NCBI GenBank assembly: GCA_045611705.1
Contig: JAZKXR010000007.1
Location: forward strand, 2,241 to 66,240
Length of the DNA: 64,000 nt
Origin: Alphaproteobacteria bacterium
GTDB lineage: Bacteria > Pseudomonadota > Alphaproteobacteria > CAAHEQ01 > UBA3637
Direction of reading: 5' to 3'
Part shown: positions 3-41,532 of the stretch, in pieces
Layout: every line of letters starts with the position of its first letter
Position numbering within the stretch: the stretch's first letter is position 1
Notes under the pieces: model-generated
What the model was told of the DNA's origin: nothing
Databases searched by the model: none
The model's input: the letters and a program-made list of their open reading frames with translations, nothing else
Position numbers and translations under genes: made by a program

Positions 3-1646
3 AGTTGTTGTAAAAACGAAAATGTTTATAATGATCCGAATACCAATGAAAAAAAATGTTGTGGTATAGGGCATCATCTATCGGAATATGTTGATATAAA
101 TAAGAACAGAAAAAAACAATGTTGTCCGAATGGGCAAGATGCTAGTTCTTATGGGAATTGTTGCAATACATCTGATTTAGAGTTAAACTGGCGTATAGAA
201 AAAAAATACTGTAAATATTTTTTAGATGCAGGAGATATCAATAATAACATTTGTCCCATACCTGTTCCAGATAGTAATGGTAGAAAAAGATGTCTGACTG
301 GTGCGAATAAAACTATATTTGAAGAAACTGGTGTTGTTTTGGGATGTTCAAATGAAGTCCCCGTTAATTGTCCTTCTAATCAAGTTGTTGTTGAACCACT
401 CAGTTCATCCGAATGTTTCTGTGGCTGTTATAATAATGATCATTGCTTTGATTCGAACCGTGTTGGAATTAAACAACGCTGTCAGGCAGATTATACATGT
501 GCTGTTCCAAAAAAACTCACATATAATAATATAACAGTTGTTTATGATAAATTTTCCGGCGGTGAAATAACTGAAGAAAAAATGAAAAAAATCCTAGAAG
601 CTCTTAAAGAAAAATTAGCGTTAACAGCAGAAGATAGTGTAACCATTCATTTTAAAGCATGGCAGGGAGATTCAAGAATGCTTGGTGCTGGCGGATATTG
701 CTATGGTGGTGATCATAAAAATATACATATTAATGCGGCATTGTGTGATGTGGCAAGTGATGGTAAAACCTTAACCTGTGAAGGAACAATTCTTCATGAA
801 AATATTCATCGTATTGATAGGGTAAACGAACCTTTATGGGGACACTTTGAATCTGGTTTGTCTCGAGCATATGAATCTCTTATCACTGAAACACATGCCC
901 AGGGTTTTGGTACTGTCAGCTATATAAATAATGCTCTAAAATTTTGTTATAAAAATTTAAATGGTAATGTATATAGTATAATGAGTACACAAATAAATGC
1001 AACAGAAGAAGAAAAAAATGACTGTAGGATCTTTACCAATAAGATAAATTCATATGGGAAAAGTGTTGATCATTATGTTAATCTTGGAAATGCCAAACTA
1101 TATTTTTCTAACCCAAAATATTTTGATCCAGAAAATTGTTCAGGTTTAAGGGCTATAATTGAAAAGGAATTTTTGAATTCAGGATATGCGAAGAGGGGCT
1201 ATATTGAAGATAAAATAAAAACATATGAAGAAATGGATGATGATTGGGATTATTTCCGTGACAAACTAGAAATTGCAAAAAGACTGGATAGGTTGGGCTA
1301 TAGACATTCAGGAACAAAAAAAACGTTGACTGAATTGTTGATTGATCTGTATAATAAAGGTTCAAAAGTATGTATCTCGGGGCATGATTTTGTTAACCAT
1401 CCCCAAATCAATATTGAAATATTAAAATCAAGGTTTTCTGAATTTGCAGAAATGAATGATTTTACAGTTGCTAATCAAAAATGTGTTTCGTGTTGGTCTG
1501 GCAAAGGAGCATTGGTATCTGAACAATGTTTTGAATGTCAAAAAAAATTAGAGTGTATAACGGACGAATTTAATACAAATTGTACGCCGATAGATTTCTT
1601 TAATAAATATATTGGAACAAGTGCTGTATCTCAGTTGTTTTACTAG
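3..1646 (+). CDS. Cys-rich secreted protein, 5' end truncated by the window edge; C-terminal domain carries an HExxH (HENIH) Zn-metallopeptidase-like motif
   Basis: Frame 3 is open from nt 3 with no stop before 1646. Repeated CC/CxC motifs (CCGIGHH, CCPNGQ, CCNTSD) and LHENIHRIDRVNE...E(+18) are consistent with gluzincin-type spacing. Confidence 0.55.
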   Translation, partial: SCCKNENVYNDPNTNEKKCCGIGHHLSEYVDINKNRKKQCCPNGQDASSYGNCCNTSDLELNWRIEKKYCKYFLDAGDINNNICPIPVPDSNGRKRCLTGANKTIFEETGVVLGCSNEVPVNCPSNQVVVEPLSSSECFCGCYNNDHCFDSNRVGIKQRCQADYTCAVPKKLTYNNITVVYDKFSGGEITEEKMKKILEALKEKLALTAEDSVTIHFKAWQGDSRMLGAGGYCYGGDHKNIHINAALCDVASDGKTLTCEGTILHENIHRIDRVNEPLWGHFESGLSRAYESLITETHAQGFGTVSYINNALKFCYKNLNGNVYSIMSTQINATEEEKNDCRIFTNKINSYGKSVDHYVNLGNAKLYFSNPKYFDPENCSGLRAIIEKEFLNSGYAKRGYIEDKIKTYEEMDDDWDYFRDKLEIAKRLDRLGYRHSGTKKTLTELLIDLYNKGSKVCISGHDFVNHPQINIEILKSRFSEFAEMNDFTVANQKCVSCWSGKGALVSEQCFECQKKLECITDEFNTNCTPIDFFNKYIGTSAVSQLFY

Positions 1647-1655
1647 GAGGATAAA

Positions 1656-1868
1656 ATGAAAATAACAAAAAAAACGCTTTTAAAAACGTTGTTTATTTCG
1701 GCTTTGTCGGGAATTTCTGTTTTGGGTGGATGCCAAAAAAATCACCATGATGATGTTCCGCAAAAAGGGGGGGAACGTCTTTCCGCAGAAGAATTGAGGA
1801 AGATGGCTGAAGAAATTCGAAAATGGGAATCAAGAAATGTACAATATAATACCAAACAAAGGGATTAA
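1656..1868 (+). CDS. small lipoprotein (signal peptide with lipobox LGGC)
   Basis: Strong RBS AGGAGG 7 nt upstream; N-terminus MKITKKTLLKTLFISALSGISVLGGC. Confidence 0.5.
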   Translation: MKITKKTLLKTLFISALSGISVLGGCQKNHHDDVPQKGGERLSAEELRKMAEEIRKWESRNVQYNTKQRD

Positions 1869-1870
1869 AT

Positions 1871-2845
1871 ATGAAAACATCATCACGTATTGGTTTGTTG
1901 GCATTTGTTTCATCATTGGGATTAAGTTTATCGGCGTGGGCGGCATGGCAATGTTGTTCATTGGATTCGGTGGCATTGTGTGGAGATGTGTGTTGTAAAA
2001 CTGAATGTGCCAGTGATGGTACCTGTCCCGATGATTCTTGTCCATCGGGCCAAGAAAAAGTATCCAATGGTGAATGCTGTGATTCCAATAAGGTTGCCGA
2101 ATCCGGAAGTACAAAAACCTGTTGCGGTTCAAATGAAACAGTTGTTGGTGATCAATGCTGTGCTTCCGATAAAGTGGCCGGCTCTGATTCTTCCCAAACC
2201 TGTTGCGGTGAGGACGAAACAGTGGTTGATGATCAATGCTGTGCCTCCGATAAGGTTGCAGGCTCTGGCGATTCCCAAACCTGCTGTGGTGAGGACGAAA
2301 CAGTGGTTGATGGCAAATGTCAAAAAGAAGATAATGAAGATGAGGACGAAGAAGATAATGTTTGTCCCGATGGGGGAACATTGGTTAAAGGAAATTGTTG
2401 TAGAGATGGTTTTCTTTATGATGATGAGAGCTATGGTTATGTTATACAAAGCTATAGTTCTTGTGGTGTTTGCCCAGAGGGTTCGTCACTTCTTTTTGAC
2501 AGGTTCTGTTGCAAAGGACTGAAAGCTTGGAATGGAACAGAATGGAAAGAAGACACTAATGTTTGGGCGAATTGTTTCTGTGCGGGAAGAGAAGGATCAG
2601 TTGTTTATGATAGCAAATCAGGGGTATGTATGCAATGTTTATCCAATAAACCCTCGTGTACTTTTTCGGGGACTGTTCTTTCTGCCAGTAGTAATTGCAG
2701 TGCAGATGCACCTGCTGGTCTTTTGGAGGAATGTTGTAATCAGGTAGGGGGAATCATGTGTCATGGTAAGTGTTTGACGGAAGGCCGTCATGTGTGCTGT
2801 GATAAAGAACCTTATGTTAGATCGGCATCATTAGGATGTGATTAA
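1871..2845 (+). CDS. Cys-rich secreted repeat protein (Sec signal peptide, CC-motif tandem repeats)
   Basis: Signal peptide ...SLSAWA followed by three 27-aa tandem repeats DQCCASDKVAGSxxSQTCCGEDETVVD. Shares the CC-pair style of the upstream ORF. Confidence 0.6.
   Translation: MKTSSRIGLLAFVSSLGLSLSAWAAWQCCSLDSVALCGDVCCKTECASDGTCPDDSCPSGQEKVSNGECCDSNKVAESGSTKTCCGSNETVVGDQCCASDKVAGSDSSQTCCGEDETVVDDQCCASDKVAGSGDSQTCCGEDETVVDGKCQKEDNEDEDEEDNVCPDGGTLVKGNCCRDGFLYDDESYGYVIQSYSSCGVCPEGSSLLFDRFCCKGLKAWNGTEWKEDTNVWANCFCAGREGSVVYDSKSGVCMQCLSNKPSCTFSGTVLSASSNCSADAPAGLLEECCNQVGGIMCHGKCLTEGRHVCCDKEPYVRSASLGCD
2069..2311 (+). repeat. three tandem 81-nt coding repeats inside the Cys-rich gene
   Basis: Near-identical 81-nt units begin at about 2069, 2150 and 2231. 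Confidence 0.6.
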
Positions 2846-2865
2846 TAAATGAATAACAGTGAAAA

Positions 2866-2899
2866 ATGCCCCTTGAATAAAAGGGGCGTTTTTATTTTT
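2866..2899 (+). terminator. rho-independent terminator after the Cys-rich operon
   Basis: GCCCCTT-loop-AAGGGGC hairpin followed by a T-run. Confidence 0.6.
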
Positions 2900-3139
2900 C
2901 CACGAATTTGATGGTCTTTTTTTATTAAATTGTCTTGGCGGGATATGTGTTTTTTGGGCGTGCGGATGACGAAAATGCGATATAATATAGCTATAACAAA
3001 CGGAAAAAGAAAAGATTTTTATACGTCTTGGTATATTGAATTAAATGGGAATGCCTTGCCCGCTCCATACAGGAGTATGAGAGATGTACTTGATGCAGCT
3101 AAAGAATAAAAAAAAGCCCTGTAAATCAAGGCATAAAAA

Positions 3140-3215
3140 TGGTGCCGACACTCGGATTCGAACCAAGGACCTACTGATTACAAATCAGTTGCTCTACCAG
3201 CTGAGCTATGTCGGC
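3140..3215 (-). tRNA. tRNA-Thr (anticodon UGU)
   Basis: Reverse complement folds as a cloverleaf: acceptor GCCGACA/TGTCGGC, D arm GCTC-AGCTGGTA-GAGC, anticodon loop TTTGTAA, T-loop TTCGAAT, encoded CCA. Confidence 0.85.
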
Positions 3216-3268
3216 ACGGTAGGGATTATATCCGATTTTTATTTAAAATGCAATCTTTTTTTAAAAAA

Positions 3269-3547
3269 TTATGCGTTTTTATTTTTATCCCAGTTTAAAT
3301 CAATGATTTTATTGATTTCCACACGCTTTAAACGATTGGTGTGACCGGCGGTGATTTGAATCATTTTTTTGGGGATTTTTAATTCATCCGATAAAAAATC
3401 AATCAAGGCTTGATTGGCCCGACCATCCACCGCCCGCTCTTTGACGGCAATTTTCCAATGGGTGTTATTCCATAATCCTTCCACGCCACAACGTTTGGCT
3501 CCGGGGCTCAGACGAATTTGTAAAACTGTTTTTTGGGTCATTTTCAT
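3269..3547 (-). CDS. DUF167/YggU-family protein
   Basis: Motifs DGRANQALIDFLS and GHTNRLKRV are typical of UPF0235. Confidence 0.65.
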   Translation of the reverse strand: MKMTQKTVLQIRLSPGAKRCGVEGLWNNTHWKIAVKERAVDGRANQALIDFLSDELKIPKKMIQITAGHTNRLKRVEINKIIDLNWDKNKNA

Positions 3548-3550
3548 CCT

Positions 3551-5503
3551 TTAAAAAAAGCTGTAAGGGTCAATGTCAATACGTACATCCACAGACGGTG
3601 GAATGACAGCACCATCCATCCACAAATGCAAATAGTTTTGAATATTGGTTTGCTTGTTGGTTTTGACCAATAAACGATAGCGATATTTACCCCGTAATTT
3701 TGAAATGGGTGCCACCACAGGACCCAAAACTTCTACACCGTCTTGTTGGGGGGCATGACGCACGATTTTTTGAACGGTTTGATAGGTTAGGGTTTGATTT
3801 TTTCCGCTGATAATCAAGCTGGCCAATTTTCCAAACGGTGGCATTTTCAGGATTTTTCGGCTGATCATTTCTTCGTTTAAAAAGGTGGAACGGTCGTTTT
3901 TTTGCAAGGCCTGAATAATTAAATTATCGGGATTATAGGATTGCAAAATAGCCAAGCCCTTTTTGCTGGCCCGTCCGGCACGCCCCATCACCTGTTGAAT
4001 CAATTGAAAAGTTCTTTCGCCCGCCCGTAAATCACCGCCGGCCAATCCCATATCGGCATCAATCACGCCCACCAAAGTTAAATTGGCAAAGTGATGTCCT
4101 TTGGCCAAAATCTGAGTCCCGATTAAAATGTCAATTTCACCATCATCCATCTGTTTGATAATGGCTTCAAAATCTTTGGGATTTTTTAATGTTTCGGATG
4201 TAATTTGGGCAATTTTTGCATCAGGGAATAAAGAAATGGCTTCTTCGGCCACACGTTCCACCCCCGGACCACAGGCAACCAGATTTTCCGCCTGACAAAC
4301 GGGGCATTTTTTCGGCACGGGCAAATGATAACCGCAATGATGACATTGCAGGTTTTTATCACCCTTATGTGTCACCAACCATGCCGAACAATGCGGACAT
4401 TGTAAACGGTGTCCACAGTTGCGACACAACATTAAAGGTGCATAACCACGGCGGTTTAAAAACAATAAAGATTGTTCTTTTTTATCCAGTTTTTCTTTTA
4501 ATGCATCTTGTAAATCTTTTGATATAAATTGAATGGGGCCTTTTTCCTTTTGACGCATATCCGTAATTTGAATATCGGGCAGGCACGCCCCCGCAAAACG
4601 TTCAGGTAAAACCAAGTGTAAATAATCGCCCTGATGGGTGTGAACATAGGTTTCCAAGCTGGGGGTCGCACTGGCCAAAATCAAAGGGCAATCGGCAATT
4701 TTTGCCCGCACAACGGCCATATCCCGTGCATGATATAAAACGCCTTCTTCTTGTTTAAAGGATGGATCATGTTCTTCGTCCACGATAATTAAACCCAAAT
4801 CTGAAAAAGGTAGAAATAAAGCCGAACGGGCACCAACTACGACACGGGCTGAACCGTTTCTGACGGCTTCCCAAGTATCTCGTCTTTGTTTTGGGGTGAG
4901 TGATGAATGCCACAGGGCCGGTTTTTCGCCAAAGCGTTTTTCAAAACGATTTAACCAAGCGGCCGTTAGGATGATTTCGGGCAAAAGTACCAAAATCTGT
5001 TGATTTGTTTTTTCCAAAACATCAGCGGTTTTTTCAAAGTAAACTTCTGTTTTACCCGATCCTGTTACGCCATCCAACAGAGCAACCTGAAAATTTTGCA
5101 TTTGACATAATTGACGCACGACTTTTTCCTGAGACGGTGAAAATTGAATTTGGTCATGATGCGGGTTAGGTGGCATAAAGATTAAAGGCTTTTTGCTAAT
5201 CTTTCCCATTTCGGGATTTAATGCCATTTTTAAAACAGCCCCAACGGGCGTTAAGGTATAACCGGCTACCCAGTTGATAAAACGTATGGTTTGTTTGTTT
5301 AAGGGTGGTTCAGGCAAAACAGCATCAATTTTTTTTAATTTATCTTCGGGATAAGAATCATCCGGTTTTTTATCCCATACAACGCCCACCAATTTTTTGC
5401 GTCCGAATTGGGCGGATACAAAAGTCCCCGGTACCAGATTTTCATCCGATAAATAATCATAAGCCCCTAATGCCACGGGAAATAAAACAGACAGGCGTTG
5501 CAT
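3551..5503 (-). CDS. priA: primosomal protein N' (PriA helicase)
   Basis: DEEHD box, Walker A GVTGSGKTEVY, Cys-rich zinc ribbon CRNCGHRLQCPHC. Start taken at MQRLSVLFP. Confidence 0.9.
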   Translation of the reverse strand: MQRLSVLFPVALGAYDYLSDENLVPGTFVSAQFGRKKLVGVVWDKKPDDSYPEDKLKKIDAVLPEPPLNKQTIRFINWVAGYTLTPVGAVLKMALNPEMGKISKKPLIFMPPNPHHDQIQFSPSQEKVVRQLCQMQNFQVALLDGVTGSGKTEVYFEKTADVLEKTNQQILVLLPEIILTAAWLNRFEKRFGEKPALWHSSLTPKQRRDTWEAVRNGSARVVVGARSALFLPFSDLGLIIVDEEHDPSFKQEEGVLYHARDMAVVRAKIADCPLILASATPSLETYVHTHQGDYLHLVLPERFAGACLPDIQITDMRQKEKGPIQFISKDLQDALKEKLDKKEQSLLFLNRRGYAPLMLCRNCGHRLQCPHCSAWLVTHKGDKNLQCHHCGYHLPVPKKCPVCQAENLVACGPGVERVAEEAISLFPDAKIAQITSETLKNPKDFEAIIKQMDDGEIDILIGTQILAKGHHFANLTLVGVIDADMGLAGGDLRAGERTFQLIQQVMGRAGRASKKGLAILQSYNPDNLIIQALQKNDRSTFLNEEMISRKILKMPPFGKLASLIISGKNQTLTYQTVQKIVRHAPQQDGVEVLGPVVAPISKLRGKYRYRLLVKTNKQTNIQNYLHLWMDGAVIPPSVDVRIDIDPYSFF

Positions 5504-11727: not shown

Positions 11728-12372
11728 TGTCATGCCCTGCCAGTCGGGCATCCAACCTACCACTGTCATGCCCGACCCGATCGGGCATCCATAAAGAATT
11801 GAATGTCATGGATCTTCGGATCAAGTCCGAAGATGACAGAGAGAGCATTGTCATGCCCAGCCTGTTGGGCATCCATCCCCCATTGTCATCCCCCACTTGA
11901 TGGGGGAACCATAAGGAATTGAATGCCATAATGGATTCTTCACATACGTTCAGAATGACGGTGGGGGGTGTGCGTCATCCTTGAGGGAGGCAGAGCCGAC
12001 CGAAGGATCCATATTAAGGACTAAAATGCCATGGATCTTCGTGTCAAGCACGAAGATGACAGAGAGAGTGTGTGGATTCTCGGGTCAAGCCCGAGAATGA
12101 CAGAGAGAGTGTTGTCATGTCTTTTCTGTTGGGCATCCATCCCCCATTGTCATCCCCCACTTGATGGGGGATCCATAAGGAATTAAATGCCATAATGGAT
12201 TCTTCACATACGTTCAGAATGACGGTGGGGGGGGTGCGTCATCCTTGAGGGAGGCAGAGCCGACCGAAGGATCCATATTAAGGACTAAAATGCCATAGAT
12301 TCTTCGCTTTGCTCAGAATGACAGGGTGAGAATGGATTCTTCACATACGTTCAGAATGACAGGGTGTTTATT
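11728..12372. repeat. dense array of REP-like GC-clamped hairpin repeats (GTCAT-stem-loop-stem-GGATCC units in both orientations), including a duplicated block of about 167 bp
   Basis: About 20 short palindromic units, e.g. gtcATGCCCgacccgatcGGGCATcc and ggATCTTCGGAtcaagTCCGAAGATgac. Block 11867-12033 is repeated almost exactly at 12131-12296. Confidence 0.7.
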
Positions 12373-36231: not shown

Positions 36232-38667
36232 ATGAATCTAGATGCCGGAATTTTTGATTACATTGTAACAACAGCCACAGCCCCGTCTATGATCGTGGTT
36301 ATTTTTGGTGTTTTGGCAGCATTGTTTTTGATTTTTGTTTTTATTTCTAAATTCGGTGAATTGGTTTTGCCAAAGCCTGTTGAAACTCGTTTGGCAAACT
36401 TTTTGCCCTTTGATTATTTGGATGAAGATGGTGCGACAATTCATTTGCATAACGGTGGGCTTGCTCGTGTTTTTGAAGTTAAAGGTGCCGATACAACTTT
36501 GGTGTTGCCCGAAGATCGTGAAGTTTTAATGGAAGCACGAAAACGTTGGATTGATTCAATGGTTGAATTACAGGTTGTTGCCCGTGTCGTGACTTTGCGT
36601 GAAAAAGTGGAATTAAAAGAACCGGAAGCTTATAAAGACAATAAGTTGTTAAAAGGCGTTGCCGAACTTTGGATGGAAAATTTAAATCGTATTTTTAATA
36701 ATAAGCATTATATTGTTTTGTCCATCAATGACCGTAAAGATGCCATGAAAGATTTAGATCAGGCTTGTGGTGCTTTGACCAGTATTATGGATGTGTATGA
36801 ACCGAAATTGCTCAGCGAAAAAAACAATGCAAATAATGAAGATAAAAGTCCGTTTTGGTTGTTTGCAAAAATGATCAGCCCTTTGTCCCGCCCAAAACCG
36901 GTGGTTCATTTTGAAAAAAAAGATCGTTTAAATGATTTACTAACCGCTGATTATGTTCATTTTACAAAAGATGACGGTTTGATACGATATTTTAACGGCA
37001 ATCGTGAAAAACTGTCCATCACAATGGGGATTCGCAAACCCGGTGATTTTATGGATGAACAAATGATTGCCGATTTTTTAAGTTTGGATATAGAATTGAC
37101 TTTATTGCATAATATTAAAGGCGTTCCCAGTTTTAAAATTATGCCCGTTGTAATGCAACAACAAAAAATGGCCTATTATACAAGCTTTTCACAAAACGTT
37201 GTTGAACAGTTTGAAGAGGCTAAACAGGCGTTGGATTCCAATGATGTCAATGCCCAAAGTTGGAATGAATACGCACTTAGCATTATTTTATATGGTGAAA
37301 GTTTGGAAGAATTGAAATTTGGTCAGGAGGAAGTGGAACGTATTTGTCGTATGTATAACGTGACTCCTGTTCGTGACGGTTGGGCGACTCAGGCAGTGTT
37401 TTTCAGCCAATTTCCAACCTTTGATATTTATCCCAGAACATACCAGCATTTATCACGTGTTGTGGCCTGTGCAACAATGATTGATAAAGCCCCGATGGGA
37501 CGCACAAAATCCGATTGGGGACCGGTTCCTATCAGTTGGTTCAGAACGATTACAGGCACCCCCTATGCATTCCAATTTCATGTATCCGAAGAACCCTATG
37601 CTGTGGCTCATACGGCCTTGATTGGTCCGACCGGGCAAGGTAAAACAACTTTTTTCAGCTTTATGGCCGGTCAGGCTTTGCGTATTCCTGATTTAAATAC
37701 ATACTTTTTTGACCGCAATAACGGTGCCAAAGTTTTTGCCATTATGAATGGGGCTCCTTATGTGCGTTTTGATGGTGGCGAAGAATCTGTTTCATTAAAT
37801 CCGTTTGCCATTCCCGACACACCGGATAACCGTTCTTTTTTAAGAATGTGGGTGCGTGATATTACCGGTGGGAATGATGCTGTATCAGAAGCCGAAATCG
37901 CCCGTGCGGTCACAACGGCCTTTGAATATTTGCCCCAAAATGAAAGATTGTTAAAAAATTTATATAAATCCTGTTTTGCCCCCAACAGCTTTATGCGTCG
38001 TGAACTCAATCGTTGGATTGATACGGATCAATATGGTCGTATTTTTAATTCACCAACGGATAATTTGGATATTGACAGCCGTTATATGTGCTTTGATTTT
38101 ACCACGATATTCCAAGATCCCATATTGGCACCGGCCGTGATTAGCTATGTGATGCACCGAATTCAAACACTTTCTACGATCAAAGGCACGCCCAGTATGA
38201 TTATGATCGACGAAACGGCCCCGATGTTGGAACATCCCATGTTTAAGGACAGCTTTATTGTCGGTTTGCGGGAAGGTCGTAAAAAACGTCAGGCTTATTT
38301 ATGTGCGTTCCAGCAACCCAAATTTTTGGATGAAAACGGTTTGGGGGATGTGATTCGCGGTCAATGTCAAACGGTTATCTTTTTCCGTAACCCACAGGCC
38401 AACGAATCGGATTATGCCACATGGAACCTTTCACCACGCGAAATGAACTTTATTTTGGGTAAAGAATTTACGGACCGCAAATATGCCATTTTGGTGTCCC
38501 GTCCCGCTATTCATGAATCGGTTATTTTGGATGTGGATTTGTCTGGTTTAGGTCCATATTTAAAGATTTATTCATCGGGTAATAAAAACGTTTTATTGGC
38601 CGAAAAATTGGCCCGTGAATTATCAGATACAGACCAAATCGTTCAAGAATATCTCAAACGTGCTTGA
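36232..38667 (+). CDS. virB4: type IV secretion system ATPase VirB4
   Basis: 811 aa, N-terminal TM, Walker A GPTGQGKTT, CagE/TrbE/VirB4 architecture. Confidence 0.9.
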   Translation: MNLDAGIFDYIVTTATAPSMIVVIFGVLAALFLIFVFISKFGELVLPKPVETRLANFLPFDYLDEDGATIHLHNGGLARVFEVKGADTTLVLPEDREVLMEARKRWIDSMVELQVVARVVTLREKVELKEPEAYKDNKLLKGVAELWMENLNRIFNNKHYIVLSINDRKDAMKDLDQACGALTSIMDVYEPKLLSEKNNANNEDKSPFWLFAKMISPLSRPKPVVHFEKKDRLNDLLTADYVHFTKDDGLIRYFNGNREKLSITMGIRKPGDFMDEQMIADFLSLDIELTLLHNIKGVPSFKIMPVVMQQQKMAYYTSFSQNVVEQFEEAKQALDSNDVNAQSWNEYALSIILYGESLEELKFGQEEVERICRMYNVTPVRDGWATQAVFFSQFPTFDIYPRTYQHLSRVVACATMIDKAPMGRTKSDWGPVPISWFRTITGTPYAFQFHVSEEPYAVAHTALIGPTGQGKTTFFSFMAGQALRIPDLNTYFFDRNNGAKVFAIMNGAPYVRFDGGEESVSLNPFAIPDTPDNRSFLRMWVRDITGGNDAVSEAEIARAVTTAFEYLPQNERLLKNLYKSCFAPNSFMRRELNRWIDTDQYGRIFNSPTDNLDIDSRYMCFDFTTIFQDPILAPAVISYVMHRIQTLSTIKGTPSMIMIDETAPMLEHPMFKDSFIVGLREGRKKRQAYLCAFQQPKFLDENGLGDVIRGQCQTVIFFRNPQANESDYATWNLSPREMNFILGKEFTDRKYAILVSRPAIHESVILDVDLSGLGPYLKIYSSGNKNVLLAEKLARELSDTDQIVQEYLKRA

Positions 38668-39483: not shown

Positions 39484-40065
39484 TTATTTTAAATAATCAT
39501 CAACATCAATTGTTTTTTTATCCGCATCTGATGCTTTGAAATAAGTATATTCGGATATATCGCCGGCACATTTGGCAAATAAAGAGCCGGGAAAAATTTG
39601 AGTTTTGTTTTTTAAATCACGCAAAGCGGCATTATAAAAACGGCGGCTGGCGGCTATGTTTTCTTCTGTTTCTGAATAAGCATCCATTGCTTTGGCCATT
39701 GTTTTGTCGGATTTCAATTGTGGATAGTTTTCCACCGAAACAATCAATTGTTTCATCGCGTCTTGCAATTTGACTTCGGCCGTAAAACGTTTCACTGAAC
39801 CAATTGCTTCATTCATTGTTTCTGTTCTGAGTTTTGTGATCTTTGTAAAAATTTCTTTTTCGTGTTGCATAAATTTTTGGGCAATTTTTAACACATTTGG
39901 AATTAAATCCGTCCGTTTTTTTAATTGAACGTCAATGCCTGATAAGGCTTCATCCATTTGGTTGCGTGCTTTTATTACCCCTGTATAGCAAGAATATAAA
40001 TAAACAGATAAAAGAATAAGTAAAGAGATGTATATAATAATCATTTTATTTCCTTTCGGTTGCAC
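39484..40065 (-). CDS. lemA: LemA-family protein
   Basis: N-terminal TM, then LemA pattern (ARNQMDEALSGIDVQLKKRTDLIPNV). Confidence 0.7.
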   Translation of the reverse strand: MQPKGNKMIIIYISLLILLSVYLYSCYTGVIKARNQMDEALSGIDVQLKKRTDLIPNVLKIAQKFMQHEKEIFTKITKLRTETMNEAIGSVKRFTAEVKLQDAMKQLIVSVENYPQLKSDKTMAKAMDAYSETEENIAASRRFYNAALRDLKNKTQIFPGSLFAKCAGDISEYTYFKASDADKKTIDVDDYLK

Positions 40066-40151
40066 ATTTTGTCATGACAGAGTAAATAAAAATATTATGC
40101 TTGTCAAGTATAATATTTTATGATAGATTGTTTTGAAAAAAAGGAGATGGC

Positions 40152-41102
40152 ATGCTGTCCAAGGATGAATTTTTAAAAAAAATTGAGGAAAATGTTTTTC
40201 CTTTGATTGATATGGAAAAGGAAGAAAAAGTAAAGCGAATAGCCAAAATATCATCTGTTTGTGTTTTTGTTGTTGCTTTGATTTGTGCCATTGTATATGT
40301 TGCATTACACCCGCCCAAGATTGCCGAAGATTATAAAAATGCAGTACTTTTAATTATTGTGCTTCCTTTTATATTGGCTGTGAATGTTTTCAGTTTTATT
40401 TTGAGACGTTATACTCGTTCTGTCAAAAAAAAATTACGTCCGATTGTTTTAAAGATTTTAAATGCTGTTCATATTCCCGAAAAACAGTTATCCGGTTTAA
40501 GCATTAATCAACTCAGGAAAATTCATTTTTTACCCCGATTTGATTCCAGACGAAAAGATAAAATTAAACACGATAGTTTTGGTATGAAGGATGAATCTTT
40601 GCCTTTTTATATTCAGGAGGTTTTGTTTTCAACCGGCGGAAAACATCCTAAAATTTTTCAAGGCCCTGTTATTCGTTTTTTTCTGCCCGAAAAGTCCGAT
40701 TTTGCATTGATGGTTGTGAAAAAAAATTCTCTTTTGAGTAAAGATGAATTTTCTTTGGGGGCAAAACAATCTTTAAATTCGTTATTCGGAAAAGATGATT
40801 GGCAACCATTGATTTTGGAAAGTGTCTCTTTTAACAAAGATTATTTTGCCTTTACCAATGATCAAATTAAAGCACGCCGTTTGTTAACGCCTGTTTTTAT
40901 GGAACACATTAAGGATGTGGAAAAGGTGTATCATGCCCCGACTAATTTTCTTTTTTATGAAGATCAACTTATTTTATTCGTAAAAACAAACAGAGATATG
41001 TTTGAATTTTTTTCAATGGGAAAAATGAAATCATCTTATATCAGATTTTATAACGAAATAAAAGTATTGCATCAGTTTAAAGATATTTTTGATTTGAAAT
41101 AA
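40152..41102 (+). CDS. membrane protein often paired with LemA (DUF3137-like)
   Basis: Divergent from lemA; two TM helices after an N-terminal soluble segment. Confidence 0.35.
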   Translation: MLSKDEFLKKIEENVFPLIDMEKEEKVKRIAKISSVCVFVVALICAIVYVALHPPKIAEDYKNAVLLIIVLPFILAVNVFSFILRRYTRSVKKKLRPIVLKILNAVHIPEKQLSGLSINQLRKIHFLPRFDSRRKDKIKHDSFGMKDESLPFYIQEVLFSTGGKHPKIFQGPVIRFFLPEKSDFALMVVKKNSLLSKDEFSLGAKQSLNSLFGKDDWQPLILESVSFNKDYFAFTNDQIKARRLLTPVFMEHIKDVEKVYHAPTNFLFYEDQLILFVKTNRDMFEFFSMGKMKSSYIRFYNEIKVLHQFKDIFDLK

Positions 41103-41107
41103 TTATA

Positions 41108-41136
41108 TTGCAATTTCAAAAAAGATAAGCTATAAT
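41108..41136 (+). promoter_or_regulatory. sigma70-type promoter (TTGCAA-17-TATAAT)
   Basis: -35 at 41108-41113, exact 17-nt spacer, consensus -10 at 41131-41136. Confidence 0.45.
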
Positions 41137-41142
41137 TTCATT

Positions 41143-41337
41143 GTTCGGATGGTCCGTCCGAACTGTGGTTTTAGCAGGCCTAATCAATACGGACATTGGG
41201 GATTTGTATCCCAAAGTCGGACATTCACCCAAATGGGTGGATGCTTGCCGAATAAAGGCATTTGCCCAATAGGCAAGGCTATTTTCGTATTGATATGGTT
41301 GCTAACTCCACCCACTTTTCAAAAGTGGGCTTTTTTT
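41143..41337 (+). ncRNA. candidate structured sRNA or attenuator leader of about 195 nt (promoter to intrinsic terminator) upstream of a small lipoprotein gene
   Basis: Hairpins TTCGGAtggtccgTCCGAA, GGGGATttgtATCCC, CACCCAaaTGGGTG, then terminator CCCACTTttcaaAAGTGGG plus T7. GGGTGG can alternatively pair with CCACCC of the terminator. Confidence 0.35.
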
Positions 41338-41352
41338 ATAAAAGGAGTTAAA

Positions 41353-41532
41353 ATGCGATATATAATTTTTGTTGTTATTTTGTCTTTTGTTTTAACGGCT
41401 TGCACTTATGCCGGGCCTTTTATCACAAATGTTTCGCAAAACAAAGACGGCACTTTAACCATTGAAAAATGTTTGGTGGAACATAACGGTTTTGGGATTG
41501 CCACCACAAATTGCACCATCGGAAAAATATAA
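41353..41532 (+). CDS. small lipoprotein (59 aa)
   Basis: AAAGGAG RBS; lipobox LTAC. Confidence 0.4.
   Translation: MRYIIFVVILSFVLTACTYAGPFITNVSQNKDGTLTIEKCLVEHNGFGIATTNCTIGKI

Follow-up and report, generated by a model that had tools for sequence, protein, structure and literature searches.

A putative terminator–antiterminator leader RNA ahead of a small lipoprotein gene in uncultured gut Alphaproteobacteria

Contig JAZKXR010000007.1 of the alphaproteobacterial assembly GCA_045611705.1 carries, between a DUF3137 gene and a gene for a 59-residue lipoprotein, a gap of 250 nt that holds a structured RNA. Here, we describe this RNA, its relatives in other genomes and metagenomes, and the covariation that supports two alternative folds, and we propose, with moderate confidence, that it serves as a cis-acting leader that conditionally terminates transcription ahead of the lipoprotein gene. 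Coordinates refer to the stretch of 64,000 nt that we analysed (positions 2,241 to 66,240 of the contig, forward strand), which we call the window; related loci carry L numbers.

All elements of the leader lie on the plus strand between the DUF3137 gene (40152–41102) and the lipoprotein open reading frame (ORF; 41353–41532). A sigma-70-type promoter comes first, with TTGCAA at 41108–41113, a 17-nt spacer and TATAAT at 41131–41136, matching the consensus at 10 of 12 positions in a consensus scan. A TTG..-17-TAnAAT pair stands at the same distance from P0, the first hairpin of the RNA, in L001, L002, L014, L015, L019, L023, L026 and L033. Transcription is predicted to start at about 41142–41144; both the start and the function of the promoter are read from the sequence. 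The RNA that would follow (~41143–41338, a leader of ~200 bases) ends in an intrinsic terminator, T, found by a terminator scan: an 8-bp stem of CCCACUUU (41311–41318) and AAAGUGGG (41322–41329) around a 3-nt loop, then a C and seven U residues (41331–41337). This G+C-rich hairpin directly before a U-tract is, by sequence, a typical intrinsic terminator, and a terminated species of ~195 nt is expected. The ribosome-binding site (RBS) AAAGGAG occupies 41341–41347, and the lipoprotein ORF runs from its ATG at 41353 to the stop codon at 41530–41532. Only 15 nt separate the terminator U-tract from the ATG, too short a gap to hold a promoter, so the ORF has none of its own there. A preliminary description of the region had proposed the near-consensus promoter, the strong terminator, the RBS and the 59-aa lipoprotein ORF, and each of them stands, the promoter with its spacing kept in relatives.

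The RNA begins with hairpin P0 (41143–41163; GUUCGGA / UCCGAAC, loop UGGUCCG). The family falls into type 1, represented by 31 sequences in our alignment, and type 2, which comprises 10 alphaproteobacterial sequences with a different 5' end; a hairpin at the P0 position is present in all type-1 members, with differing stem sequences. Within the P0 loop, GUCCG can pair with CGGAC at 41218–41222. This pairing, PK0, is 89.5% paired with three compensatory pairs, being GCCC:GGGC in most members and GUCC:GGAC in the subtype of the window. The loop itself, GCCCA in the majority of members but GUCCG in that subtype, covaries with a GGGC (GGAC) box just before P3.

Downstream of P0, several strands have two possible partners. 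Hairpin D (41167–41180; GGUU / GGCC) carries in its loop strand A (UUAGCA, 41171–41176), which is complementary to A' (UGCUAA, 41300–41305). Strand B (AUCAAUACG, 41183–41191) pairs with B' (CGUAUUGAU, 41286–41294), which itself lies in the loop of hairpin C (41279–41298; CUAU at 41279–41282 with AUGG at 41295–41298). These pairings are supported by covariation. Between them lie hairpin P2 (41192–41218), seen in the minimum free energy (MFE) fold, whose length and sequence differ from member to member (5 bp and 94% paired in type 2), hairpin P3 (41222–41243; CAUUCACCC / GGGUGGAUG) and helix P4 (41244–41277; CUUGCC / GGCAAG). P4 contains the conserved internal loops GAAUAAA (41250–41256) and CAAUA (41267–41271) and the apical hairpin P4a (41257–41266; GGC-AUUU-GCC); the bases AAU-AAGG and AAUA of its loops vary little or not at all among members of the family. 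The P3 3' arm (41235–41243) doubles as the 5' strand of the antiterminator helix AT, in which GGGUGGA (41235–41241) pairs with UCCACCC (41307–41313); the latter overlaps the 5' arm of the terminator. A conserved helix sharing bases with a terminator 5' arm is the hallmark of terminator–antiterminator control.

Two folds follow from these pairings. In State I, A and B pair with A' and B', with B:B' forming the inner part of the closing helix, and P3 and T are present; in State II, D, C and AT form instead. The sets A, B, P3, T and D, C, AT each make a fully nested structure, and AT cannot coexist with P3 or T because it uses the bases of both. The four hairpins counted in the preliminary description can be identified as P0, P2, P3 and P4, followed by the terminator; its picture of the RNA was too simple in omitting the long-range closing helix and the alternative helices.

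The predicted stability of the RNA is well beyond what its composition gives. The segment 41137–41338 has an MFE of -83.4 kcal/mol, compared with -52.7 +/- 4.9 in 200 shuffles (z = -6.24; none as good). The MFE structure is State I, and a forced State II reaches -56.4 kcal/mol. Locally, P3 is predicted at -13.9, T at -10.0 and the AT duplex at -12.8 kcal/mol. When successive prefixes of the RNA are folded, P3 and the closing helix A+B are in place before T is transcribed.

To compare the RNA with its relatives, we used a covariance model, R1, built from 18 related sequences. In the window it finds one copy, at 41137–41339 on the plus strand, with 157.9 bits (E ~5e-44), as against 15.5 bits on the minus strand, and no further credible copy in the 64 kb. 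The nested State I fold (P0, A:A', B:B', P3, P4, P4a and T) was then scored on a model-based alignment of the 31 type-1 sequences. Of the alignment cells, 84% are paired compared with 73% after shuffling, and 203 cells carry double changes compared with 71, with none of 500 shuffles reaching 203; these counts come partly from a model-fitted alignment in which many sequences are closely related, and they are indicative rather than event-based statistics. Sliding the partners by a few columns lowers State I pairing to 32–48%.

Among the individual State I helices, B is 100% paired with compensatory changes in seven of its nine pairs, and A:A' is compensatory in five of six pairs in type 1 and five of seven in type 2. 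P4 is 97% paired, with three compensatory pairs in each type. P3 is 92% paired and varies on one side only, with C/U exchanges in its 5' arm and a constant 3' arm, which indicates an additional constraint on the 3' arm. Altogether, State I is compensatory in 15 pairs in type 2. Both the MAFFT alignment and the first covariance-model alignment mis-register P0 and T in some sequences, so we judged these two hairpins from per-sequence folds and sequence tables.

State II is maintained as well. Its helices are 97% paired in type 1, where pairs in both D and C vary, and 96% paired in type 2, with six compensatory pairs; the type-2 sequences lend independent support to both folds. The innermost, loop-side pair of D is CG in 10 type-1 sequences, UA in 10, UG in six and GC in four. 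Helix C is 98% paired, with one pair that is CG in 22 sequences and UA in six (type 1); its type-2 counterpart has two compensatory pairs and occurs as ACUAU/AUAGU, GCUAU/AUAGC and ACUC/GAGU.

The strongest conservation is that of the antiterminator. In 32 distinct sequences drawn from all subtypes, every one of the 224 cells of its seven core pairs is paired, and two columns show coordinated changes: G:C to U:A in nine sequences and U:A to C:G in two. The pairing of GGGTGG with CCACCC, proposed earlier from the window alone, is thus intact in every distinct member and covaries at two positions. Three variants exist, GGGUGGA/UCCACCC, GGUUGGA/UCCAACC and GGGCGGA/UCCGCCC, the last in one copy each of L042 and L058, and in both the GGUUGGA and the GGGCGGA variants the 5' arm of P3 is compensated as well. 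AT is kept in all members, including L051 and L074, which lack the 5' arm of P3, and L042 copy 2 and L033 copy a, which lack the 3' arm of T. Because AT persists where one of these arms is missing, it appears to be the conserved core of the element, with P3 and T as the platform that competes with it.

Taken as a whole, the covariation supports two mutually exclusive folds that have both been maintained in evolution, and the structural conservation in relatives that the preliminary description had put forward as a check is therefore found, in the form of compensatory changes. How far the exclusion extends differs between the types. In type 2 the C' columns are shared with B' and A'. In type 1 a strict either-or is, judged from the pairing scheme, limited to AT versus P3 and T.

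The RNA and the lipoprotein gene travel together. Loci compared through BatA place the window in an uncultured gut alphaproteobacterium, and its BatA has no identical entry on record. The closest relative of the locus is L001 (JAZQUH010000011), whose BatA is 99% identical to that of the window, with L002 to L005 progressively more distant. RNA and lipoprotein gene are both present in L001 and L002 and both absent from L003 to L005, where rplT runs directly to batA. At every alphaproteobacterial copy of the lipoprotein gene found, all from gut metagenome-assembled genomes, the RNA lies 12–15 nt upstream of the ATG, and all lipoprotein-linked members have a U-rich tail after T. This holds in at least five neighbourhoods: between rplT or DUF3137 and batA, from lon to infC, after a cation-efflux gene, from sodC to a cation-efflux gene, from dnaJ to mutL, and after a small ORF. 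A constant position on the same strand and joint inheritance with the lipoprotein ORF are what a cis-acting leader should display. The RNA was not found upstream of the gammaproteobacterial lipoprotein homologue in Methylotuvimicrobium (L036), and the link between RNA and lipoprotein is therefore clade-specific.

The number of units varies between close relatives. Three tandem promoter–RNA–lipoprotein units occupy 2660–3944 of L002, and the window (41108–41532) and L001 (3511–3944) have one unit each, of different RNA subtypes. The RNAs of the window and L001 are strongly diverged, with largely compensatory differences, at a locus otherwise 99% identical, because each has retained a unit of a different subtype. 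The locus in L002, the window and L001 looks like an array under differential loss or recombination.

Around the cassette, the gene order of the window is rpmI-rplT, LemA (minus strand) and DUF3137 upstream, and batA, batB and batD downstream. In the window, rplT and the RNA are separated by LemA and DUF3137 (39484–41102); L001 and L011 lack both at this position, and there the promoter of the RNA comes immediately after the rplT terminator. Upstream of batA there is an A+T-rich block with TTGCAT-17-TATATT, which is kept even in L003 to L005, where the cassette is missing. Because batA keeps this promoter-like block of its own, the leader probably controls the lipoprotein gene only.

In addition to these genomes, we scanned metagenomes with a degenerate pattern derived from the conserved core. 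Of the 36 matching loci, about 29 are true members and seven are chance matches, close to the expected number; most come from rumen and gut samples. Most of the metagenome members precede a protein of about 150 aa that starts C(A/V/T)FFGHR and has a weak Pfam match to YpsA/SLOG (E ~1e-5, below the curated cutoff); we call these SLOG-type. Other downstream genes encode a 140-aa lipoprotein (L069), a membrane protein (L056) and unassigned proteins. The gene content around these members looks like that of mobile elements: L048 has a large serine recombinase with DUF2924 near the RNA, L042 has three RNA copies, and L040 has Fic-like and UmuC-like ORFs, named from the look of their sequences without a profile. 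In L051, the order over 864–4190 is HU, the RNA, a YpsA-like SLOG gene, a bAvd-like gene, a small ORF without a family match and a reverse transcriptase, a layout that resembles a diversity-generating retroelement beside the RNA motif. The MutL encoded on one SLOG-type contig shares 54% identity with that of an alphaproteobacterial locus, which hints at a related host clade for that member. A search for cultured hosts with the SLOG protein gave metagenome proteins only.

SLOG-type members including L040, L048, L050 and L063 also have a third box, UUGGGCUG, located 10–20 nt after T and just upstream of the start codon. It is complementary to the P0 loop CAGCCCAA and may be an additional arm for translational control. 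The window RNA has no box of this kind.

We compared the RNA with known families in several ways. With the 4227 covariance models of Rfam 15, the whole window yields at the gathering threshold only one tRNA, located elsewhere. Relaxing the search of region 41000–41450 to E<=10 gives chance matches only, the best being Arrc14 with 21.5 bits against a cutoff of 99, covering just the terminator. Sixteen related loci have only tRNAs as Rfam matches, and nothing relevant appears for SLOG-type and type-2 representatives at E<=5. The earlier remark that no known riboswitch consensus was recognizable is in line with these scans. BLASTN with the RNA finds no match in phage and plasmid records, and the DNA pattern has 0 matches in IMG/VR viral contigs. 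A literature search for DUF1273, YpsA, SLOG or the GGGUGGAUG box linked to an RNA motif found nothing relevant. One motif in PMC8040213, a study of candidate structured RNAs in human microbiomes, lists DUF1273 among its neighbour domains, and is known to us by those neighbours alone rather than by its sequence; in the main text and 200 of the 408 supplementary files of that study there is no motif sequence that matches the RNA.

Several specific candidates were considered and rejected. 6S RNA and ANTAR-target RNA have no covariance-model match here and their visible defining features are absent. A T-box is contradicted by the lack of a match to RF00230 even at E<=10 and by the downstream genes, which encode lipoproteins or SLOG proteins. 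A type III antitoxin of the ToxIN kind should have internal tandem repeats, of which there are none in 41137–41338, and the downstream proteins are not nucleases. Attenuation by a leader peptide was discarded since the ORFs at 41141–41272 and 41149–41532 are not conserved and the indels among homologues are not multiples of three. A repeat scan of the window also rejects the idea that the RNA is a repeat element within it.

Among characterized systems, ON riboswitches such as the pbuE/ydhL adenine riboswitch offer a close parallel. They share with the present RNA a leader that extends from the start site, a multi-helix core and an RBS close behind the terminator; in both, the 3' strand of an aptamer helix (here AT) is shared with the terminator 5' arm, and, as predicted for the present RNA, termination is the default and read-through follows from stabilization of the alternative helix. 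The present RNA differs in having no Rfam 15 riboswitch match and non-metabolic downstream genes, in the extra hairpin P3 that sequesters the 5' strand of AT, and in a second layer, D and C versus A and B, that spans the whole molecule. T-box leaders are likewise long, with several helices, and use a G-rich box (GGGUGGUACCGCG in the T-box, GGGUGGAUG here) that pairs with the 5' side of the terminator. Unlike them, the present RNA has no match to their covariance model, by which model alone we judge Stem I and the specifier loop to be absent, and its downstream genes are neither aminoacyl-tRNA synthetase nor amino-acid genes. To our knowledge, Alphaproteobacteria are not known for T-boxes. Classical attenuators (trp, with 1:2/3:4 versus 2:3, and the mgtA and pyrimidine leaders) also have two exclusive conserved helix sets, one of them with the terminator; in contrast to these, we find no conserved leader peptide and no associated known RNA-binding regulator. 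The orphan motifs discovered in metagenomes (Weinberg-type, in Rfam) are similarly restricted to uncultured gut and rumen bacteria, defined by covariation and often found beside mobile-element genes, but the present RNA is absent from the Rfam families. The terminator–antiterminator kind of control is well known. Neither Rfam nor the literature searched contains this family, its architecture or its associations with genes.

On this evidence, our favoured interpretation, which we consider rather probable, is that the RNA is a cis-acting, conditional-termination 5' leader of the lipoprotein gene, that is, a riboswitch-like attenuator. Transcription would start a few bases past TATAAT, and the RNA would begin with P0. 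In State I, pairing of A and B with A' and B' would build a long helix that closes the junction of P2, P3 and P4, T would form, and polymerase would stop in the U7 tract, leaving the ~195-nt RNA and no lipoprotein mRNA. In State II, D and C would form, the 3' arm of P3 (GGGUGGA) would take UCCACCC, and T would be blocked, allowing read-through into the ORF 15 nt downstream. As State I is thermodynamically favoured and is the first to form co-transcriptionally in the window RNA, the default would be OFF. With termination as the default, read-through would need an effector that stabilizes the AT fold, be it a small molecule, an ion, a protein or another RNA, and this effector would turn the gene ON. 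We infer, rather than observe, that the terminator works in vivo, which way the leader switches, and that an effector of one of these kinds exists.

Several observations weigh against this interpretation. State I of the window RNA is favoured over State II by 27 kcal/mol, and a strong stabilizer would be needed. In type 1, D shares no bases with A, nor C with B, so that D/A and C/B may coexist as pseudoknots, and a two-state picture of the whole molecule may be oversimplified. The covariation counts have the indicative character described above. The downstream genes are heterogeneous and give no metabolic clue, which is unusual for a metabolite riboswitch, and T lacks a good U-tract in many SLOG-type members, where control may not be by intrinsic termination. 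Lastly, there are gene-less copies, namely L033 copy a, L042 copy 2 and the junction in L020, which fit a trans-acting role.

These gene-less copies lead to the first alternative, that the unit makes an independent trans-acting small RNA (sRNA) of ~195 nt, with the lipoprotein gene as a mere neighbour or a recipient of leaky read-through; a dual role is also conceivable. The unit is complete from promoter to terminator, the strongly favoured State I should make the terminated species dominant, and the structure is more elaborate than a simple attenuator needs. No ORF lies directly downstream in the copies in question, and in L020 the terminator abuts the promoter of the next RNA. However, such copies look degenerate, for example in lacking the 3' arm of T, and the RNA stands 12–15 nt before every alphaproteobacterial copy of the lipoprotein gene in several neighbourhoods and in tandem arrays, and is lost together with it. 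That fixed linkage to the downstream ORF favours a cis leader over an sRNA, the two options named in the preliminary description, as does the fact that the ORF has no room for its own promoter, and a covarying antiterminator pairing would be purposeless in a plain sRNA. We regard a purely trans-acting role as unlikely.

We think it about equally unlikely that the leader is controlled by a protein, either a dedicated antiterminator or a general factor such as HU, that chooses between the folds by binding the P4 internal loops or a GGAUG box. A protein might recognize the invariant AAUAAGG and AAUA loops, and the heterogeneity of the downstream genes, together with their often mobile-element-like contexts, would fit a regulator belonging to an element better than a metabolite. 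An HU gene lies directly upstream of the RNA in L051 and near the copies in L042. Against this, no candidate regulator gene is consistently linked to the family, the alphaproteobacterial cassettes consist of RNA and lipoprotein only, and there is no match to the targets of protein-dependent antiterminators among the RNAs in Rfam.

The order of promoter, RNA, terminator and small ORF is also that of ToxI-ToxN, and a type III-like toxin–antitoxin system would pair an RNA antitoxin and a leaky terminator with a toxic lipoprotein or SLOG protein. The units are mobile and duplicated and occur in mobile-element-like contexts. Overproduced YpsA-family proteins inhibit cell division, which counts towards such a role. 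However, the RNA has no tandem repeats, the downstream proteins are mutually unrelated and are not endoribonucleases, an exported lipoprotein would be beyond the reach of a cytoplasmic RNA, and the covarying competition between terminator and antiterminator points to transcriptional control; we therefore hold this explanation to be highly improbable. The possibility raised in the preliminary description that the region has no dedicated function, being the distal terminator of the upstream gene plus fortuitous structure, has nothing in its favour other than its position after the DUF3137 gene and can be dismissed, as homologues in dozens of contigs carry compensatory changes, the RNA has its own conserved promoter and moves with the lipoprotein gene, the rplT gene of L001 and L011 ends in a terminator of its own, and the family model is strand-specific.

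The family has a conserved core with invariant unpaired bases. A bolder proposal, which we offer only tentatively, is that the RNA represents a riboswitch class of its own, so far an orphan, whose aptamer core of eight helices would be pseudoknotted or bistable and which would occur in uncultured Alphaproteobacteria-like bacteria of gut and rumen and in their mobile elements. A cellular signal would turn on envelope lipoproteins and YpsA-like SLOG (nucleotide-binding) proteins, and the P0 loop would act as a selector among up to three GGGC boxes.

The cassette adjoins a cation-efflux (cation diffusion facilitator, CDF) gene in L015 and L026 to L033, and a Cu/Zn superoxide dismutase gene as well in L026 to L032. 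These neighbours, together with an EKCMVEHN...C motif in the lipoprotein, led us to consider metal sensing, an idea that we did not adopt. The neighbourhoods are syntenic variants of one region, so the association may be mere shared synteny, and the SLOG-linked members do not fit.

If the leader interpretation is correct, the RNA defines a family of regulatory RNAs new to Rfam 15, with dozens of representatives in metagenomes of the human gut and the rumen, in a clade without a cultured model. It would also be a natural bistable RNA in which compensatory substitutions in both folds provide a natural set of mutants for the study of co-transcriptional switching, and its effector could reveal the signal that controls small envelope lipoproteins and SLOG-domain proteins of mobile elements. 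For annotation, the RNA explains the 250-nt ‘intergenic’ gap and warns against coding calls on the in-frame upstream extension. Automated annotation places the start of the lipoprotein ORF within the RNA, which results in a 127-aa ORF at 41149–41532 and, in a homologue from the Joint Genome Institute (JGI; P0001), a 68-aa protein that starts inside the terminator. Both extensions are almost certainly artefacts.

The lipoprotein itself starts MRYIIFVVILSFVLTAC, with a signal peptide and the lipobox L-T-A-C, which fits [LVI][ASTVI][GAS]C and identifies it, on sequence, as a lipoprotein. The lipobox Cys is invariant in 93 homologues, and a profile search, with 178 matches that include Gammaproteobacteria, places the protein in a wider family of small lipoproteins. 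Invariant or near-invariant residues are C17, G21, P22, N26, E38, K39, C40, N45 and C54. An AlphaFold 2 (AF2) model with a mean predicted local distance difference test (pLDDT) score of 85 consists of the signal helix and a three-stranded beta meander. The protein has no match in Pfam or NCBIfam at E<=10, and Foldseek finds no match for the model in the PDB at E<=0.001. The JGI label of P0001 as VirB7 is unsupported, there being no profile or fold match and the gene lying outside a virB operon. The sole type IV secretion system (T4SS) gene nearby is VirB4-like (36232–38667), with rpmI, rplT, LemA and DUF3137 between it and the lipoprotein gene. This VirB4/TrbE-like ATPase gene is isolated beside rpmI-rplT: a scan of the few neighbouring ORFs recognized no further T4SS gene.

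Two further repeat regions were seen in the window. At 11792–12360, between two minus-strand ORFs, units of ~264 nt follow each other in tandem, their 228-nt copies being 93% identical; they contain inverted repeats, for example GGATCTTCGGATCAAGTCCGAAGATGAC, and may represent a repeat element or an array of structured RNAs. At 2068–2310, inside the ORF at 1871–2845, three in-frame 81-nt tandem repeats, 70–72% identical, encode what is apparently a Cys-rich module.

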